Assembly (NCBI GenBank): GCA_030390025.1
Contig: CM059432.1
Location: 21,702,001-21,766,000 of the forward strand
Length of the DNA: 64,000 nucleotides
Origin: Squalus acanthias
Lineage: Eukaryota
Direction of reading: 5' to 3'
A program made the position numbers and the translations under genes. Below are positions 12,756 through 53,497 of the stretch, piece by piece (position 1 is the stretch's first letter; every line of letters starts with the position of its first letter). The notes below the pieces were generated by a model that searched no databases, had not been told where the DNA came from, and was given only the letters and a program-made list of their open reading frames with translations.

Positions 12756-13075
12756 GAAAGTCTTCCCTTCAGCTATAATCTACAGGCTTCTAAAGTCCAA
12801 GCTTGGCAACATTTGACCATTATCTCTTGCTTTATCTTATCTTTTTTCCTGTGCTTTTCAGCTTGGGTGGCGTCTTGCACCTAGTGCACTGGCCTTTTAT
12901 CTAGGTTTCTCAATCATTACAAAATTGGTTTCTGTAGACTGTTAAACAACTGCCTGGATTGAAAGCATATCATCTACATAGATACATAGATACATAGAAG
13001 ATAGGAGCAGGAGTAGGCCATCCGGCCCTTCGAGCCTGCTCCGCCATTTAATGAGATCATGGCTGATCCTCCAAT

Positions 13076-16043
13076 TCAGTATCCCGTCCCCGCCTTCTCT
13101 CCGTAACCCTTAACCCCTTTTGCCTGTAGAAATATATCTAATTCCCTCTTAAATATATTTAATGAGCTGGCGTACACTGCCCTCTGTGGCAATGAGTTCC
13201 ACAGGTTCACCACCCTCTGAGTGAAGAAATTCCCCCTCATTTCTGTCCTAAATGGTTTAGCCCTTATCCTTAAATTATGTCCTCTAGTTCTGTTCTCACC
13301 CGCCAAGGGAAACATTCCTTCTGCATCTAGTCTGTCTAGACCTGTCAGAATTTTATACACTTCTATGAGGTCCCCTCTCAATCTTCTAAACTCCAGTGTG
13401 TACATCCCTAAACTACATAGTCTCTCCTCATAGGTCAATCCCGCCATTCCTGGTATCAGCCTGGTGAATCGCCGCTGCACCCCCTCCATGGCAAGAACAT
13501 CTTTCCTCAGATGAGGCGACCAAAACTGTACACAGTACTCGAGGTGTGGTCTCACCAGTGCCCTGTACAGCTGCAGCAAGGTATCCCTGTTCCTGTATTC
13601 CAACCCTTTTGCTATGAAGGCCAGCATACCGTTTGCCTTCTTGACCGCCTGTTGCACCTGCATGCTCGCCTTCAGTGACTGGTGTACAAGAACACCCAGG
13701 TCTCTCTGTACTTCCCCCTCTCCCAATTTATTGCAATTTAAATAATAATTTGCCCTCCCGTTCCTGCACCCAAGGTGGATAACTTCACACTTGTCCACAT
13801 TATAGTGCATCTGCCATTTATCCGCCCAATCACCCAGTCTGTCCAAATCGCTCTGGAGCTTCCTGGTCTCCTCCTCTGAGCCCACCCCCCCCTCCTAGTT
13901 TAGTGTCGTCTGCAAATTTGGAAATGCTGCATCCGACTCCCTGATCCAGGTCATTAATGTAAATTGTGAACAGCTGGGGACCCAGGACAGATCCCTGTGG
14001 TACCCCACTTGTTACTGCCTGCCATTCAGAAAATGAGCCGTTTATTCCAACTCTCTGTTTTCTATCTGACAGCCAGTTCTCTATCCACATCAATACTTTC
14101 CCCTTTATCCCATGAGCTTCAATTTTCCATGCTAATCTTTTATGTGGGACCTTGTCGAAGGCCTTTTGGAAGTCCAGGTACACCACATCTACTGGCTCTC
14201 CCCCATCTATTTTACCAGTTACTCCCTCAAAAAATTCCAATAGATTAGTCAAGCACGATTTACCCTTTGTAAATCCATGTTGACTCTGTCCTATCCTGTC
14301 CCCATTTGCTAAGTGCTCCGCTATTTCATCCTTAATGATGGACTCCAGCATTTTGCCCACAACTGATGTAAGGCTTACAGGTCTGTAATTACCTGCTTTT
14401 TCCCTACCCCCCTTTTTGAATAGTGGGGTAACGTTAGCTACCCTCCAATCCATGGGCACTGTTCCCGAGTCTAATGAATTCTGAAAAATCATTCTTAGTG
14501 CATCCGCTATCTCTAGGGCCACCTCCTTCAGTACCCTAGGATGCATGTTATCAGGCCCTGGGGATTTGTCCGCCTTCAATCCCTTTAGCTTCCTTAACAC
14601 CATATCCTTAGAGATATTGATTTGCGTCAGTTCCTCCTTTGCCAATGTCCCTATTTTTCCCGATATCCCAGGGAGGTTTTTTGTGTCTTCCTTCGTAAAG
14701 ACTGACCCAAAGTATGCATTTAGTTGGTCTGCCATTTCCTTATTTCCCGTTATATATTCCCCCGTATCTGACTGCAATGGACCAACTTTGGTTTTCACCA
14801 GTCTTTTCCTCTTGATATACTTATAAAAGCTTTTGGAGTTAGTTTTTATATTTTCCGCCAGCTTGCTTTCATAAGCTATTTTGCCCCTCTTGATTAAGCC
14901 CTTTGTCCTCCTTTGCTCTATCTTAAACTGTTCCCAATCTTCCGCTCTGGCGCTTTTTTTGGCTATTTTATACGCCCTATCTTTGGATTTTATGTTGTCT
15001 CTAATTTCCCCTGTTATCCACGGTTGAGTCACCTTTTTAGATTTCCTTTTATGCCAGATTGGTATAAACAATTTTTGCAATTTTGTCATTCTATCTTTAA
15101 ATGCTTGCCATTGTTTATCTACCTCCAGTCCTCCCAGGAACGTTGTCCAATCAGACCTACTCAGTTCCCGTCTAATGGCATCATAATTCCCCTTGTTTAA
15201 ATTCAGGACCTTAGTCTCTGAGTCAATTTCTTCGCTCTCCATTTCGAGTGAGAAATCGATCATGTTATGATCGCTCTGACCCAAGGGTCCCCGTACAACA
15301 AGATTACTAATTAGTCCCTTCTCATTGCACAGTACCCAGTCCAATATAGCCTGTTCCCGAGTTGGTTCCTCGACATATTGATCCAGATAACCATCCCTTA
15401 AACACTCAAGGAATTCCTCCTCCTCATTATTTTTACTGATTAGGCTAGTCCAATCTATATGTAAGTTAAAGTCACCTATGATGACAGCTGTGCTCTTATT
15501 GCACGCTTCTCTAATTTCCCTCGTGATGCCCTCCCCAACCTCTATTTTACTATTTGGAGGCCTATATACCACTCCTATTAATGTTTTTCGCCCCTCGCTA
15601 TTTCTTAGCTCCACCCATATAGATTCTGTATTAACTGAGTTAATATCCTTCCTTTCAATTGCATTTATCCCCTCTTTTACCAGCAATGCTACCCCTCCTC
15701 CCTTTCTTTTTTGTCGATCCTTCCTAAATACTGAATACCCCTGTATGTTAAGCTCCCAGCCCTGCTCACCCTGCAACCATGTTTCCGTAATCCCAATTAG
15801 ATCATAATTATTAACCTCTATTTCCACAGCTAATTCATCTACCTTGTTCCTGATGCTTCTCGCATTAAGGTATAAAACCCTCAGGCTTTTTTTATGCTCA
15901 CATTTTTTATGAATTAGTTTGGCCCTTTGTTTTTTGTTCCTCACCCTTTTACCATTTATTTCTGTCTGCCTTTCACTTTCCTCTATTTCACTACATAGGT
16001 TTCTAGCCCCCTGCCATACTAGTTTAAATGCTCCCGAACTGCT
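13076..16043 (-). CDS. CR1 ORF2: APE endonuclease + reverse transcriptase, with one +1 frameshift in a G8 run
   Basis: YLNARS, ITETW, GDFN and SDH endonuclease motifs; [19 protein letters not shown] and FADD RT motifs. ORFs 13830-15944 and 13076-13885 join if one C is removed from the C8 run at 13885-13892. Confidence 0.93.
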
Positions 16044-16966
16044 TTATCAAAAATTACCGCGAGAACATCAGTTCCATCTTTGCACAGGTGTAGACCGTCC
16101 CTTTTGTATAGGTCACACCTACCACAAAACTGGTTCCAATGCCTCAAAAATTTAAAACCCTCCCTCTTACACCACTGCTCAAGCCACGTATTTAGCCTAA
16201 CTATCCTGTTCTCTGTACTCTTACTAGCACGTGGCACTGGTAGTAATCCAGAGATTACTACCTTCGAGGTCCTACTTTTTAGCTTGGCTCCTAACTCCCT
16301 AAATTCTACTTGTAGGACCTCTTCCCTTTTTTTAGCTACGTCGTTGGTACCAACATGTATCACGACAACTGGCTGTTCCCCCTCCCCCTCCAGAATGTTC
16401 TGCACCCGCGCCGAGACATCCTTGACCCTTGCACCAGGGAGGCAACATACCATCCTGGAGTCTCGGTCGCGACCACAGAAACCCCTATCTATTCCCCTTA
16501 CAATCGAATCCCCTATTACTATAGCCCTGCCACTCTTTTTCCCTCCCTTCTTTGCAACAGAGCCAGTCATGGTGCCATGAGCCTGGCTGCTGGTGCCTTC
16601 CCCCGATGAGTCATCCCCCCCGACAACAGCACCTAAGGCGGTGAACCTGTTGCTAAGGGAGACAACCCCAGGGGATTTCTGCACTACCTTCCTGCCCTTG
16701 CTCTGCCTTTTGGTCACCCATGTACTATCTACGCTGGCCTTAACCTGCGGTGTGACCAACTCACTAAATGTGCTATCCACAACCCTCTCAGAATCGTGGA
16801 TGTTCCAAAGTGAGTCCATCCGCAGCTCAAGGGCCGTCATGCGGTCCCACATGAGCTGCAGCTGGACACACTTCCCGCACACATGGTTGTCAGGGACACA
16901 GGAAGCGTCCCTGATTTCCCACATGTTACAGGAGGAGCATGACGCAGGTCCGAGCTCTACTGCCAT
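16019..16966 (-). CDS. CR1 ORF1: CxxC..CxxC zinc finger/leucine zipper + SGNH esterase (315 aa, intact)
   Basis: CSSC...CGKC, heptad leucines, and GDSIVR, HVGTND, DGLHL SGNH blocks. Confidence 0.93.
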
Positions 16967-17407
16967 GACTTAACCCTTATATTACTTTTTAATTTTCTAG
17001 TTTTAGTTTATTTATTGACTTTTGTTTTCCCAAAGCTTACTTAGACCAATGTATACTGTACTCCTCTTATTCCTTTTTAAACTAACCAAATCCCACTAGT
17101 TTTAGTTCTACTTTCTAGGAAGGTTTGAGGAAAGTACTTACCAGTTAGTCTTACCTCCCTGGTCTTTCGCTGACTTCCCGGTCTTGTGTCCCCTTGGTCC
17201 TACGCCGACTTCCCGCTCCTCCCGGTTCCTGCCCTGCTGAAAAGAAACTGAGACCAAAAAATTTGTGACCTTTGTTTTTAGACTGCTAAAAGACTAGTAG
17301 GTTAGAGGAGGAGGGCGGGTGGGGGTTCCTACTCTGTAGGAACTCGGGTTTAAGCCACCACCCTCCTTAAATGCCATTCACCTGGGTGCTTCCCACCTGG
17401 TCCGCTT

Positions 17408-19008
17408 CCGGTCTCGTCGCTCCCGACAACAGCCTGTGAAGAAAAGCCCGCGAAAGTGAGTTCAAATACTCACAGCACCTCACAGCACCTCCGGTCTCGT
17501 CGCTCCCGACAACAGCCTGTGAAGAAAAGCCCGCGAAAGTGAGTTCAAATACTCACAGCACCTCACAGCACCTCCGGTCTCGTCGCTCCCGACAACAGCC
17601 TGTGAAGAAAAGCCCGCGAAAGTGAGTTCAAATACTCACAGCACCTCACAGCACCTCCTGTCTCGTCGCTCCCGACAACAGCCTGTGAAGAAAAGCCCGC
17701 GAAAGTGAGTTCAAATACTCACAGCACCTCACAGCACCTCCGGTCTCGTCGCTCCCGACAACAGCCTGTGAAGAAAAGACCGCAAAAGTGAGTTCAAATA
17801 CTCACAGCACCTCACAGCACCTCCGGTCTCGTCGCTCCCGACAACAGCCTGTGAAGAAAAGCCCGCGAAAGTGAGTTCAAATACTCACAGCACCTCACAG
17901 CACCTCCGGTCTTGTCGCTCCCGACAACAGCCTGTGAAGAAAAGCCCGCAAAAGTGAGTTCAAATACTCACAGCACCTCACAGCACCTCCGGTCTCGTCG
18001 CTCCCGACAACAGCCTGTGAAGAAAAGCCCGCGAAAGTGAGTTCAAATACTCACAGCACCTCACAGCACCTCCGGTCTCGTCGCTCCCGACAACAGCCTG
18101 TGAAGAAAAGCCCGCGAAAGTGAGTTCAAATACTCACAGCACCTCACAGCACCTCCGGTCTCGTCGCTCCCGACAACAGCCTGTGAAGAAAAGCCCGCGA
18201 AAGTGAGTTCAAATACTCACAGCACCTCACAGCACCTCCGGTCTCGTCGCTCCCGACAACAGCCTGTAAGAAAAGCCCGCGAAAGTGAGTTCAAATACTC
18301 ACAGCACCTCACAGCACCTCCGGTCTCGTCGCTCCCGACAACAGCCTGTGAAGAAAAGCCCGCGAAAGTGAGTTCAAATACTCACAGCACCTCACAGCAC
18401 CTCCGGTCTCGTCGCTCCCGACAACAGCCTGTGAAGAAAAGCCCGCGAAAGTGAGTTCAAATACTCACAGCACCTCACAGCACCTCCAGTCTCGTCGCTC
18501 CCGACAACAGCCTGTGAAGAAAAGCCCGCGAAAGTGAGTTCAAATACTCATAGCACCTCACAGCACCTCCGGTCTCGTCGCTCCCGACAACAGCCTGTGA
18601 AGAAAAGCCCGCGAAAGTGAGTTCAAATACTCACAGCACCTCACAGCACCTCCGGTCTCGTCGCTCCCGACAACAGCCTGTGAAGAAAAGCCCGCGAAAG
18701 TGAGTTCAAATACTCACAGCACCTCACAGCACCTCCGGTCTCGTCGCTCCCGACAACAGCCTGTGAAGAAAAGCCCGCGAAAGTGAGTTCAAATACTCAC
18801 AGCACCTCACAGCACCTCCGGTCTCGTCGCTCCCGACAACAGCCTGTGAAGAAAAGCACGCGAAAGTGAGTTAAAATACTCACAGCACCTCACAGCACCT
18901 CCGGTCTCGTCGCTCCCGACAACAGCCTGTGAAGAAAAGCCCGCAAAAGTGAATTCAAATACTCACAGCACCTCACAGCACCTCCGGTCTCGTCGCTCCC
19001 GACAACAG
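17408..19008 (-). repeat. 83-bp tandem monomer array (19 units plus a partial unit) forming the CR1 5' UTR
   Basis: Unit starts at 17408, 17491, 17574 and so on to 18984; units are nearly identical, with no unique spacers. Confidence 0.97.
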
Positions 19009-19294
19009 TCTGATGAGGAAAGGTAACAGTCATTCCATTTGATTCATCTCATGAAAACTATAACCTACTGTTGTGTGCAAGTCGAAGGTTAATGGTGGTT
19101 GGCGATTAGTTTTTGAGAATAGAAACACCAAGCCAATTATCCTCATGTTCTGGATTTGGATTCCATGTGCTTTCTGTTTGAACTCCTGCCTGCACAGTGA
19201 GCTGGTTAATGAAGAGATAACACTATTTAAGCAACTGACTTAAATAGCTGCATTGAAACTGCAGGTGCGCTTTTGCAGTGCAAAATTGCCAGAA

Positions 19295-26934: not shown

Positions 26935-27260
26935 GTGGGGGAATCTAGAACTAGGGGGCATAATTTCAGAATAAGGGGGCACCCATTTAAAATGGAAATG
27001 AGGAGGAATTTCTTCTCTCAGAGAGTCGTGAATCTTTGGAATTCTCTTCCCCAGAGAGCTGTGGAGGCTGGGTCATTGAATATATTTAAGGTGGAGATAG
27101 ACAGATTTTTGAATGGTAAGGGAGTCAAGGGTTATGGGGAGCGGGCAGGGAAGTGGAATTGAGGCCAAGATCAGATCAGGCCATGATCTTATTGAATGAC
27201 GGAGCAGGCTCGAGGGGCCAAATGACCTACTCCTGCTCCTACGTCTTATGGTCTTATTAT
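26935..27260 (+). mobile_element. CR1 3' end
   Basis: GESRTRGHNFRIRG...[14 protein letters not shown], 3' hairpin and tail. Confidence 0.88.
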
Positions 27261-27974: not shown

Positions 27975-28697
27975 CAGGAGGAACACCAGCAGCAGCAGCA
28001 ACCACAAAGAAGCCTTCTCCTCAACGACCTGATGCTCCACAGGAGAGAGGGCATCAGCACAGGGCTGCACCGCGCCGGAGGCGATACCCCCAACACAGGG
28101 TATACAGGCAGAGGATGAGCTTCCACAACATGACTGAGCAGCAGTGCTTCAGGAGGCTCAGGCTATCACGCCAGGTCGTCACAGACATTTGTAGCTTGCT
28201 GGAAGAAGACCTGCTGCCCAGAGGACCTGGTGGACACGCCTTACCAGTGGCTGTCAAAGTTACCACCGCCCTCCGCTTCTTTACCTCAGGCTCCTTCCAG
28301 GGATCTGCAGCAGACATTTGTGGCATCTTGCAGTCGGCTGCCCAAAAATGCATCACACAGGCAACTGATGCCATGTATCTGGTTGGGTCCTCGACATATT
28401 GGTCCAGGAAACCATCCCGTAAACACTCCAGGAATTCCTCCTCCACAGTATTGTTACTAATTTGGTTAGCCCAATCTATATGCAGATTAAAGTCAACCAT
28501 GATGACTGCTGTGCCCTTATTGCACGCTTCTCTAATTTCCCTTTTAATGCCATCCCCAACCTTCGCATTACTGTTTGGAGGTCTATATACCACTCCCACT
28601 AACGTTTTCTGCCCCTAAGGTGGAGATGGCACTAGCAGCGGTGCACATTGCTACCTGGGAGACCCGGGATGGCCTCATAATGGCCAGATTTACTTAG
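27975..28697 (+). pseudogene. Harbinger transposase with its catalytic core replaced by a CR1 fragment
   Basis: [30 protein letters not shown] to 28378; the C-terminus [10 protein letters not shown] resumes after 28616. Confidence 0.82.
28379..28616 (-). mobile_element. Internal CR1 endonuclease fragment
   Basis: [28 protein letters not shown], homologous to 15360-15595. Confidence 0.88.
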
Positions 28698-30527: not shown

Positions 30528-31872
30528 GAACATAAGAACATAAGAAAGAGGAGCAGAATTAGGTCATTTGGCCCTTCAAGCTTGCTCTGCCATTCAACAA
30601 GATCATGGCTGATCTTCTACCTCAACTCCACCTTCCCACACTATCCCCATATCCCTTAATTCCTATCGTTCCCAAAAATTTATCGACCTCTGTCTTGAAT
30701 ATACTCAATGACTGAGCATCCACAGTTCTTTGGGGTAGAGAATTCCAAAGATTCACAACCTTTTGAGTGAAGACATTTCTCGTCATCTCAATCCTAAATG
30801 GCCGACCCCTTAATTCTGTGACTGTGACCCCGTGTTCTAGATTCCCCAGCCAGGGGAAACATTTTCCCAACATTAACCCTCTCAAGCCCCTTAAGAATTT
30901 TCTATGTTTCAATTAGATCGCCTCTCATTCTTCTAAACTCTAAGGAATATAGACCTAGTCTACTCAATCGCTCCTCATAGGGCAATCCTCTCATTCCAGG
31001 AACTAGTCTAGTGAACCTTCGCTGCACTCCCTCATTGTGTCCTCTTCACAGCTTACTTTCCCATCTAGCTTTGTATCATCAGCAAACTTGGATACGTTAC
31101 ACTCAGTCCCTTCATCTAAGGTTTTAATATAGATTGCAAATAGCTGAGGCCCAAGCACTGATCCTTACGGTACCCTGCAAGTTACAGCCTGCCAACCTGA
31201 AAAAGTCCAGTTTATTCCTACTCTCTGTTTTCTGTCCATTAACCAATCCTCAATTCATACTAATACATTACCCCCAATACCATGAGTCCTAATTTTGTGT
31301 AATAACCTCTTATATGGCACCTTATCGAATGCTTTTTGAAAGTCCAAATATACTACATCCACTGGTTCACCCTTATCCATCCTACGAGTTACATCTTCAA
31401 AAAACTCTAACAGATTTGTCAAACATAATTTCCCTTTTATAAAGCCATGTTGACTCTGCCTAATCACATTATGATTTTCGAAGTACCCTGTTACGTCCTT
31501 AATAATAGATTCTAGCATTTTACCTCCTACTGATGTCAGGCTAACTGGCCTATATTTCCCCGTTTTTTCTCTTCCTCCTTTCTTAAATTGCGATGTTATG
31601 TTTGCAACCTTCCAATCCTTGGGGACTGTTCTAGAATCTAGGAAATTCTGGAAGATTAATACCAGTGTATCTCTGCAGCTACCTCTTTTAAAACCCTAGG
31701 ATGCAGATTGTCAGGTCCAGGGGATTAGTCACCACTTAGTACCATTCATTTCTCCAGTACTATGTCTTTACTTATACTGATTTCTTTAAGTTCCTCATTC
31801 TCTCTAGACCCTTGGCTCCCCATTATTTCCGGAATGTTTTTTGTGTTTTCTACCGTGAAGACAGATACAAAG
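30528..31872 (-). mobile_element. CR1 LINE, truncated and internally deleted
   Basis: [40 protein letters not shown]; (CATAAGAA)n tail. Confidence 0.9.
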
Positions 31873-31899
31873 GATTAGGATGAAGGTGAGTGTCAGTGG

Positions 31900-48024: not shown

Positions 48025-48385
48025 ACTTACCCTATATTGAAATTCATTTTCCAGTTACACACCCATTCTGTAAGTTTGTTAACATCTTCTTGTATTTTTT
48101 TGCACTCTTCCTCAGTATTTACTATACGCCCCAATTTGGTGTCATCTGCAAATTTTGATATTGTACTTCCAATTCCTGAGTCCAAATCATTTATGTAAAT
48201 GGTGAACAACAGTGATCCCAGCACCACTTCCCACCTTCTGCCAGTCTCAGTAACTACCTTTAACCCCTGCTCTGTTTTCTGTTTTGTAGCTAATTTGCTA
48301 TCCATTCTGCTACTTGTCCGCTGACTCCACACGCTCTGACCTTAGCCATGAGTCGACTATGCGTTATCTTGTTGAAAGCCTTTTG
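48025..48385 (-). mobile_element. CR1 RT fragment
   Basis: [22 protein letters not shown]. Confidence 0.85.
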
Positions 48386-50016: not shown

Positions 50017-51482
50017 AGAAACATAGAAACATAGAAAAATAGGAGCAGGAGTAGGCCATTTGGCCCTTCGAGCCCATTCAATATGATCATGGCTGATCCT
50101 CTATCTCAATACCATAGTCCCGCTCTCTCCTCGTACCCCTTGATGCCTTTTGTGTCTAGAAATCTATCTATCTCCTTTTTAAATATATTCAGTGACTTGG
50201 CCTCCACAGCCTTCTGTGGTAGAGAATTCCACAGGTTCACCACCCTCTGAGTGAAGAAATTTCTCCACATCTCAGTCCTAAATGTCCTACCCCGTATCCT
50301 GAGACTGTGACCCCTCGTTCTAGAGTCCCCAGCCAGGGGAAACATCCTCCCTGCATCCAGTCTGTCTAGCCCTGTCAGAATTGTATACGTTTCAATGAGA
50401 TCCTCTCTCATTCTTCTAAACTCTAGTGAATACAGGCCTAGTCGACCCAATCTCTCCTCATACGACAGTCCTACCATCCCAGGAATCAGTCTGGTGAACC
50501 TTCGCTGCACTCCCTCTACGGCAAGTATATCCTTTCTTAGGTAAGGAGACCAAAACTGCACATCGTACTCCAGGTGTGGTCTCACCAAGGCCCTGTACAA
50601 CTGTAGTAAGACATCCTTGCTCCTGTACTCAAATCCTCATGCAATGAAGGCCAACATACCATTTGCCTTTCTAACTGCTTGCTGCACCTGCATGTTTTCT
50701 TTCAGTGACTGGTGTACAAGGACACCCAGGTCCCTTTGTACATCAGCATTTCCCAATCTAGCACCATTTAAATAATACTCTACCTTTCTGTTTTTCCTAC
50801 CGAAGTGGATAACTTCACATTTATCTATGTTATACTGCATCTGCCATGTATTTGCCCACTCACTCAACTTGTCTAAATCGCCTTTAAGCCTCTTTGCATC
50901 CTCCTCGTAACTCACAATCCCACCTAGTTTTGTGTTGTCAGCAAACTTGGAAATATTACATTTGGTTCCCTCATCCAAATCATTGATATATATTGTGAAT
51001 AGCTGGGGCCCAAGCACTGATCCCTGCGGTACCCCACTAGTCACCGCCTGCCACCCCAAAAAAGACTCATTTATTCCTACTCTCTGTTTCCTGTCTGTTA
51101 ACCAATTTTCAATCCATGTCAGTATATTACCCCCAATCCCATGTGCTTTCATTTTGCACACTACCCTCTTATGTGGGACTTTATCAAAGGCTTTCTGAAG
51201 ATCCAAATACACCACATCCACTGGTTCTTCCTTATCTATTCTACCAGTTATATCCTCAAAAAACTCCAGTAGGTTTGATTTCCCTTTCATAAATCCATGT
51301 TGAATTTGTCTAATCCCGTTGATATTTTCTAAATGTCATGTTATCACATCCTTTATAATAGACTCTTAACATTTTCCCTACTACAGATTTTAGGCTAACC
51401 AGTCTGTAGTTCCCTGTTTTCTCTCTCCCTCCTTTTTTAAATAGTGGGGTTACATTTGCCACCCTCCAATCTGCAGGAACTG
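50017..51482 (-). mobile_element. CR1 LINE, 5'-truncated
   Basis: ORFs 50637-51290 and 50106-50600 (RT and C-terminus); (AAACATAG)n tail. Confidence 0.92.
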
Positions 51483-52946: not shown

Positions 52947-53497
52947 TTGGTGATGGTGAAAGTGATGGTGAAAGTGGAGGTGACGGTGGAGGCAGAGATG
53001 ATTCTGGAGGTGGGAGTAGAGGTGGAGGTGGAGATGCAAATGATGGTGTGGATGAAGGTGATGGTGGAGTTGAAGGCGCTAATGGAGGTGATGGTGGAGG
53101 TGGAGATGATTCTGAAGTTGATGGTGGAGGTGGGGCAGAGATGGAGGTGAAGATAATGGAGATGGAGACGGAGGTGATGATCGAGGTAGAGGTGGAGGTG
53201 GAGATGAAAATGATGGTGGAGATAAAGATAATGGAGGTGAAGGTGATGGTGGAGGTGGAGATGATTCTGGAGTTGATGGAGGTGGGGTAGAGGTGGAGTG
53301 GAGATAATCGAGATGGAGGTGGAGGTGATTATAGAGGTAGAGGTGGAGGTAGAGATGAAAACAATGGTAGAGATGAAGATAATGATGGATGTGAAGGTGA
53401 TGGTGGAGATGGAGATGATGCTGGAGATGGAGGTGGAGTTGGAGATGATGCTGGAGATGATGGTGGAGGTGGAGGTGGAGACGGAGGTGTTGGTGGG
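52947..53497 (+). repeat. Degenerate GTG/GAG/ATG trinucleotide low-complexity tract
   Basis: About 550 bp with almost no C on the plus strand. Confidence 0.9.

Follow-up and report, generated by a model that had tools for sequence, protein, structure and literature searches.

A candidate programmed -1 frameshift signal at the ORF1-ORF2 junction of CR1 retrotransposons

CR1 is the dominant long interspersed nuclear element (LINE) of sharks, reptiles and birds. How LINEs make the protein of their second open reading frame (ORF) is described as an open question in passages of a review (PMC3894237), and the CR1 group makes up 22-34% of shark and ray genomes according to parts of a 2026 CR1 survey (PMC13343379). 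A stretch of 64,000 nucleotides (nt) of Squalus acanthias DNA (assembly GCA_030390025.1, contig CM059432.1, positions 21,702,001 to 21,766,000 of the forward strand), referred to here as the window, carries a full-length LINE on its minus strand, from about 19020 to 12975, consisting of a tandem array of 83-base-pair (bp) units, ORF1 and ORF2. Judged by its Pfam domains, it is an esterase-type CR1 LINE, with an SGNH esterase in ORF1 and an APE endonuclease plus reverse transcriptase (RT) in ORF2, an architecture that matches the description in passages of PMC13343379. As a preliminary description of this DNA had pointed out from the sequence alone, the first in-frame ATG (15263) lies past the SDH motif of the endonuclease (15275), and a GTG stands at 15944. 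We suggest herein that ORF2 is very probably expressed by programmed -1 frameshifting at U_UUA_AAC, aided by the adjacent stop codon and a G-run, which would give an ORF1-ORF2 fusion of about 1,300 amino acids. The features concerned, all on the minus strand, are as follows.

16019..16966, minus strand: ORF1, 315 amino acids from its Met, with N-terminal Cys pairs (zinc-finger-like), an SGNH/GDSL esterase domain and the C-terminal end REHLN (from ORFs and Pfam)
16022..16028, minus strand: heptamer of slippery type, T_TTA_AAC, in X_XXY_YYZ phase (read directly from the sequence)
16019..16021, minus strand: ORF1 stop codon TAG, adjoining the heptamer
16007..16011, minus strand: G-run GGGGG, starting 10 nt 3' of the heptamer; a candidate stimulator
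15885..16018, minus strand: variable linker from the ORF1 stop to the endonuclease, open in the -1 frame only, with no ATG in this subfamily
13830..16043, minus strand: frame of ORF2, shifted by -1 from that of ORF1, with the APE endonuclease and RT (Pfam); its first ATG is at 15263

Conservation of the junction within and beyond the genome

The junction reads GAG CAT TTA AAC TAG TAT GGC AGG GGG on the minus strand. The preliminary description had placed T_TTA_AAC (16028-16022) in the X_XXY_YYZ phase of ORF1 with the stop (16021-16019) adjoining, and had the -1 frame open five codons ahead of the heptamer, after TGA TAA; both statements proved correct. Two points absent from it are the G-run at 16011-16007 and a break in ORF2 near 13890. 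In other subfamilies, the ORF1 stop is TAA or TAG, and in a few copies TGA.

The pattern TTTAAAC-TAR-N7-GGGG (R denotes A or G) has 35,250 matches in the genome, against 49 for the reversed control; the heptamer and stop do not meet at the junction by chance. Copies were sampled with a pattern that is blind to the junction, a degenerate form of the DGLHL motif that ORF1 encodes some 60 nt upstream, which has 32,721 genome matches against 209 for its control, and the first 100 listed were taken. The exact heptamer is present in 85 of these copies, the heptamer with TAR in 83, and the heptamer with up to two mismatches in 95. Of 95 copies, all have three or more G in the G-run, and 81 have GGGG at positions +11 to +14. 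An endonuclease match was obtained in 87 of the 100 copies, 68 of them in the -1 phase, and the linker is open in 62 of those 68.

CR1 copies are related by descent, and the real test is therefore a comparison between subfamilies. Twelve natural copies were used as subfamily representatives; they share 41-94% identity over the last 111 ORF1 residues and are alike, on average, at 54% of four-fold third positions. Among 24 columns with an invariant residue, a single codon is kept in only two, CAC for a His and TTA for the terminal Leu. This Leu is TTA in all 12 representatives, and the seven other invariant Leu columns use two to four codons each. Moreover, the codon before the terminal Leu has T as its last base in all 12, whichever of five residues (G, A, H, D or V) it encodes. 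The G-run behaves in a similar way: read in the -1 frame as xxG GGG G, it has the Gly codon GGG in every representative, preceded by a third-position G in every one across Q, G, A and K, while none of ten other invariant Gly columns keeps one codon, some being strongly biased. The heptamer is thus conserved at the RNA level, beyond the need of the protein, and the conservation across copies anticipated in the preliminary description holds at synonymous positions.

These codon counts bear on a reading in which the esterase requires a C-terminal Leu-Asn, the ORF2 N-terminus requires a Gly, and ORF2 is made in some other way, such as from an internal start. The LN lies exactly 21 residues past DGxHL in 27 representatives and could end a structural helix. 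Conservation driven by the protein is nevertheless largely refuted by the fixed synonymous positions. The residue before LN varies, yet it permits a final T in 96 of 97 cases, although 41% and 31% of the residues at the two preceding positions are ones that do not (E, K, Q, M or W); and fish esterases of the L2 type, equal in length, have a different end, in most cases Thr. We consider this reading very improbable.

ORF1 homologues that end in LN occur in rays, sharks, alligator, lizards, turtles, a snake and a swallow, the closest named relatives of the window's ORF1 being those of sharks and rays. A more distant set comprised 140 ORF1 representatives at 50% identity, of which 89 have an intact-looking end. 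A slippery-compatible terminal tripeptide (LN, QGN or SKN) is found in 57 of the 89, compared with 4.6% of internal positions; LN would be coded by T_TTA_AAC, QGN by G_GGA_AAC and SKN by A_AAA_AAC. Q precedes GN in nine of nine proteins that end in GN, and G_GA is listed as a known deviation of the first triplet in parts of a 2016 frameshifting survey (PMC5009743). Fifteen further relatives end in xGN (9), QGN plus one residue (2), QEN (3) or otherwise (1).

Published consensus sequences extend this distribution. In the supplement of PMC13343379, of which the first 400 letters of each row were covered, there are 23 motif matches; among the 22 listed, 16 are ORF1-end junctions and six are not. 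Rows with TTTAAAC and a stop come from alligator, crocodile, bullfrog, coelacanth, bowfin, elephant shark, rays and sharks, with one labelled Crack, and a bearded-dragon row has the heptamer followed by TGA. By eye, the window's junction closely resembles the rows labelled CR1. The supplement of PMC4255032 gave no matches, and the searched supplement files of PMC4316615 held no junction, their two matches both lying in 3' ORF2. A profile search of viral contigs with two alignments found no match, and a pattern search of viral contigs returned 62 raw matches. A metagenome scan yielded one useful locus (L033) and five degraded distant LINE copies without a readable junction. P0011 had no match in the host genome at a strict cut-off, and the 13 proteins retrieved as longer than ORF1 alone were all gene-model chimeras and uninformative. 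CR1-like ORF1 sequences also appear under bacterial names, in a Pseudomonas aeruginosa protein (P0010) and a fragment on a short Providencia contig (L109); these are likely to be contamination by host DNA.

The linker and the missing start codon

The linker that leads from the ORF1 stop to the endonuclease was compared in 183 copies, which fall into 19 classes and include the sampled copies, the best-match loci of four families and L033. The modal distance from stop to endonuclease is 3n+2 in 16 of the 19 classes (80-194 nt), which keeps the -1 phase. The three others are a class of two copies that tie (161/162), one represented by a single copy with a deletion, and an old three-copy class (241-243 nt). 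Of the 16 in-phase classes, 14 have a median stop count of zero in the -1 frame, and the +1 frame contains 1-11; shuffled linkers are open with probabilities of 0.004-0.47 each. No in-frame ATG occurs in the best copy of nine of the 19 classes, and in the remainder ATGs are scattered in position. No AUG start for ORF2 is thus conserved across the linker classes, in agreement with the preliminary description, which had AUG initiation unable to produce the endonuclease in the window copy. In L278, an unbroken copy, 965 codons are open from the heptamer, with the endonuclease from codon 45 and the first Met at codon 166; in L279, 997 codons are open. These two belong to subfamilies other than the window's, and a fusion read from the unbroken L279 would have about 1,309 amino acids, close to the length first estimated. 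A phased, open linker without a conserved ATG implies that the linker is coding and free in length, and that its phase is tied to the heptamer and not to a start codon. The GTG at 15944 was rejected as the ORF2 start; it sits in the variable linker as one of ten near-cognate codons.

An open, phased linker fits termination-reinitiation, the chief competing explanation, equally well. In that case ribosomes that stop at the end of ORF1 would begin again in the -1 frame, at the stop codon or close to it; the ORF2 protein would be separate, and the heptamer and G-run would serve as signals for reinitiation. The geometry TA[R NN] is identical to that of UAAUG, and there are precedents, in partial accounts, in the coupling of SART1 (PMC3894237) and the AUG-independent initiation of L1 ORF2 (PMC5009743). 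SART1 and mammalian L1 resemble CR1 in having a bicistronic LINE RNA, and SART1 ORF2 likewise lies at -1 at the stop (PMC3894237). TAATG itself stands at the ORF1 stop, with the heptamer kept, in L114, L152, L184, L180 and L162 (one linker class of four copies and one more copy), where both frameshifting and stop-start reinitiation could act. ATG is, however, the commonest codon at the restart place in only one of 19 classes, so that UAAUG is not conserved, and the codon found there is often not even near-cognate (GCT, GTA, AAA, AAT, ACT, GAA or GTT). Unlike CR1, SART1 and L1 are described without a slippery heptamer in the passages covered. Reinitiation also gives no reason for the X_XXY_YYZ arrangement or for switching among LN, QGN and SKN in distant relatives. 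Taken as the source of ORF2 protein in general, it appears improbable.

A correction of the frame in RNA, by splicing, by slippage of the polymerase or editing where the T/A runs lie, or through a separate ORF2 transcript, seems highly unlikely. Runs of T3-A3 can slip; nothing more direct speaks for it. Two raw RNA runs from a related organism, with depths of 49/34 and 35/59 on the two strands in the junction bin, show no splice joint and no heptamer indel at 5% or more, a weak test because the reads pool many dead copies and both strands. In addition, an RNA altered by splicing or slippage would return to the genome by reverse copying, and the genomic copies keep the unspliced junction.

How the frameshift might be stimulated

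Under programmed -1 frameshifting, ribosomes would pause at U_UUA_AAC, with the stop codon next to it and the G-run at the entry channel. The tRNA-Leu and tRNA-Asn would re-pair on UUU AAA, after which CUA would be decoded, giving the junction peptide REHLN-LVWQG. A fraction of ribosomes would thereby make a fusion of ORF1, linker, endonuclease and RT, while most would stop and release the ORF1 protein, in a ratio like that of Gag to Gag-Pol. Features typical of canonical -1 sites are at hand, namely an in-phase X_XXY_YYZ heptamer, a long open -1 ORF and conservation beyond the need of the protein; a 3' stem-loop or pseudoknot 5-9 nt downstream was not found.

The preliminary description had proposed that, with no strong pseudoknot in sight, the adjacent stop codon might provide the pause. 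A stop does lie directly 3' of the heptamer, yet it is probably not the only 3' signal, because the G-run, too, is conserved, with its spacer fixed at 10 nt. A conserved motif without detected structure about 10 nt 3' of the shift site is a mark of protein-stimulated frameshifting of the arterivirus or cardiovirus type, here G-rich and not C-rich. Tentatively, we would attribute the pause to slow termination combined with a single-stranded G-run, perhaps bound by a protein, at the mRNA entry channel. Other roles of the G-run, such as pairing in trans or a G-quartet, are possible.

Several points weigh against the frameshift. All of the evidence is comparative. Besides the TAATG copies, 19 of the 87 sampled copies with an endonuclease match are out of phase, which we read as private indels in dead copies, and the 12 representatives include several close pairs, standing for perhaps 6-7 independent lineages. 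In the old class with a linker of 241-243 nt (L077, L150 and L072), none of the three copies is in phase, the breaks lie at different places, and no intact member was seen among the three. Among the distant ORF1 proteins, 26 of 89 have no slippery-compatible end, and the QGN, SKN and QEN relatives are known from protein only, their heptamer codons being deduced. The published consensus rows drop bases and so show heptamer and stop without a readable phase; the exact 7-nt spacer plus GGGG is present in only seven of the 16 junction rows, among them those of alligator and crocodile, and most of the remaining rows have G-runs nearby.

The structure tests belong with these points. They covered 20 elements, with L286 left out as its junction was missed by the motif filter. 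No local stem-loop 5-9 nt downstream rose above shuffles (z from -0.98 to +1.6; pseudoknots not modelled directly), in keeping with the preliminary description. No long-range pairing partner of the G-run was shared, the best partners being differently placed, and a three-tier G-quadruplex pattern was found in 0 of 20. A two-tier pattern was found in 13 of 20, the window's family not being among them. A weak partner of the G-run that recurs in the CLPG codons of ORF1, some 390-415 nt upstream, was not taken as evidence.

On balance, the comparison of sequences supports the frameshift interpretation first put forward, and by it the junction is a real, deeply conserved recoding signal, with a stimulator possibly of a new kind. 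If ORF2 is indeed expressed in this way, the CR1 ORF2 protein would be redefined as an ORF1 fusion, its missing start codon would be explained, and a criterion for intact CR1 elements would be gained; a bare G-run would then be a stimulator of a kind not described for natural sites in the parts of the reviews covered. The conserved 22-nt signal makes the question of how ORF2 protein is made testable with a single reporter. A broader scheme, which we regard as possible though doubtful, is that CR1 has carried a structure-free cassette (heptamer, stop, 7 nt and G-run) since the origin of jawed vertebrates, with heptamers swapped in distant relatives, and that the G-run binds a trans-acting protein, either a host G-tract binder or the ORF1 protein. 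This would be a regulated, protein-stimulated frameshift outside RNA viruses, tethering endonuclease and RT to a membrane-binding esterase.

Known systems and other parts of the element

Known -1 frameshift systems that use U_UUA_AAC have, according to parts of PMC5009743, the same heptamer and phase, an upstream structural ORF and a polymerase ORF in the -1 frame. CR1 differs from them in that no stem-loop or pseudoknot was found 5-9 nt downstream (the spacer range given in passages of PMC7618472), in the stop directly after the heptamer, and in being an element without long terminal repeats (a non-LTR element) and without a protease. A likeness in the stimulator is offered by the nsp2 -2/-1 frameshift of the virus PRRSV, where nsp1beta and PCBP bind CCCANCUCC, a motif 10 nt from the shift site (PMC7618472); in the partial accounts covered, this frameshift likewise lacks RNA structure, and its motif is short, single-stranded and placed 3' of the shift site (PMC7618472, PMC5009743). 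The equal spacing of motif and G-run is an analogy and no more. In contrast, CR1 has a G-run as its motif, another heptamer and a stop after it, and a protein that binds the CR1 G-run is only presumed.

Among APE-type non-LTR elements, Dictyostelium TRE5-A and TRE3-A require a -1 frameshift for ORF2 according to a review legend (PMC5911963), and the passages covered of a second review say only that their ORFs overlap (PMC5633606). They differ from CR1 in clade and ORF1 type, and no shift site or stimulator is given for them in these passages. TRE5-A and TRE3-A thus offer a precedent for a LINE that uses -1 frameshifting. For zebrafish ZfL2-1, an esterase-type element, suppression of a stop codon has reportedly been proposed for ORF2. 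For Paramecium non-LTR elements, a +1 frameshift or reinitiation, or readthrough, is proposed in parts of PMC5405496. Both cases differ from CR1 in frame and signal, and together they suggest that ORF1-ORF2 fusions recur in LINEs.

No report of CR1 frameshifting was found in the literature searched, whose scope did not take in the original CR1 descriptions (Kajikawa 1997, Kapitonov and Jurka 2003, Haas 1997/2001), where an earlier remark is possible. The covered parts of the main text of the 2026 CR1 survey (PMC13343379) have no mention of frameshift, slip, overlap or translat-, and those of PMC4120745 none of frameshift or overlap. Among non-LTR elements, the covered parts of the 2016 frameshifting survey name only HeT-A, TART and L1 (PMC5009743).

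The remaining parts of the element, also on the minus strand, are these.

17407..19021, minus strand: 5' tandem array of 19.5 near-identical units of 83 bp, at the 5' end of the element
13076..13894, minus strand: 3' part of ORF2 beyond the break
12975..13075, minus strand: 3' untranslated region, ending in short ATCTATGT-type repeats (read directly)

The break in ORF2 of the window copy falls at a G homopolymer near 13890. The 83-bp unit or a variant of about 74 bp was found in 16 of 33 sister-copy loci tested. Monomeric promoters are known from mouse L1, and the array at the 5' end of this LINE, which resembles them, is likely to consist of promoter monomers. In the passages covered of PMC13343379, 5' arrays are mentioned for ORF1-less elements only.

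Fish esterase ORF1s of the L2 type (P0062-P0114) include about 19 that end in Thr and not LN. One copy, P0110, runs on without a change of frame, reading VRT-W-L-TGAQ; this would be consistent with an ORF2 that follows in frame behind a UGA-CUN readthrough stop and suggests that L2 relatives may fuse ORF1 and ORF2 by readthrough. Elsewhere in the window, other CR1 subfamilies are present as 5'-truncated fragments 69-85% identical to the full element (50018-51471, 30530-31875, 28382-28616, 26947-27241 and 48135-48224), and positions 52949-53489 hold a degenerate GGT/GAT-rich tandem repeat with periods of 6-36 bp.

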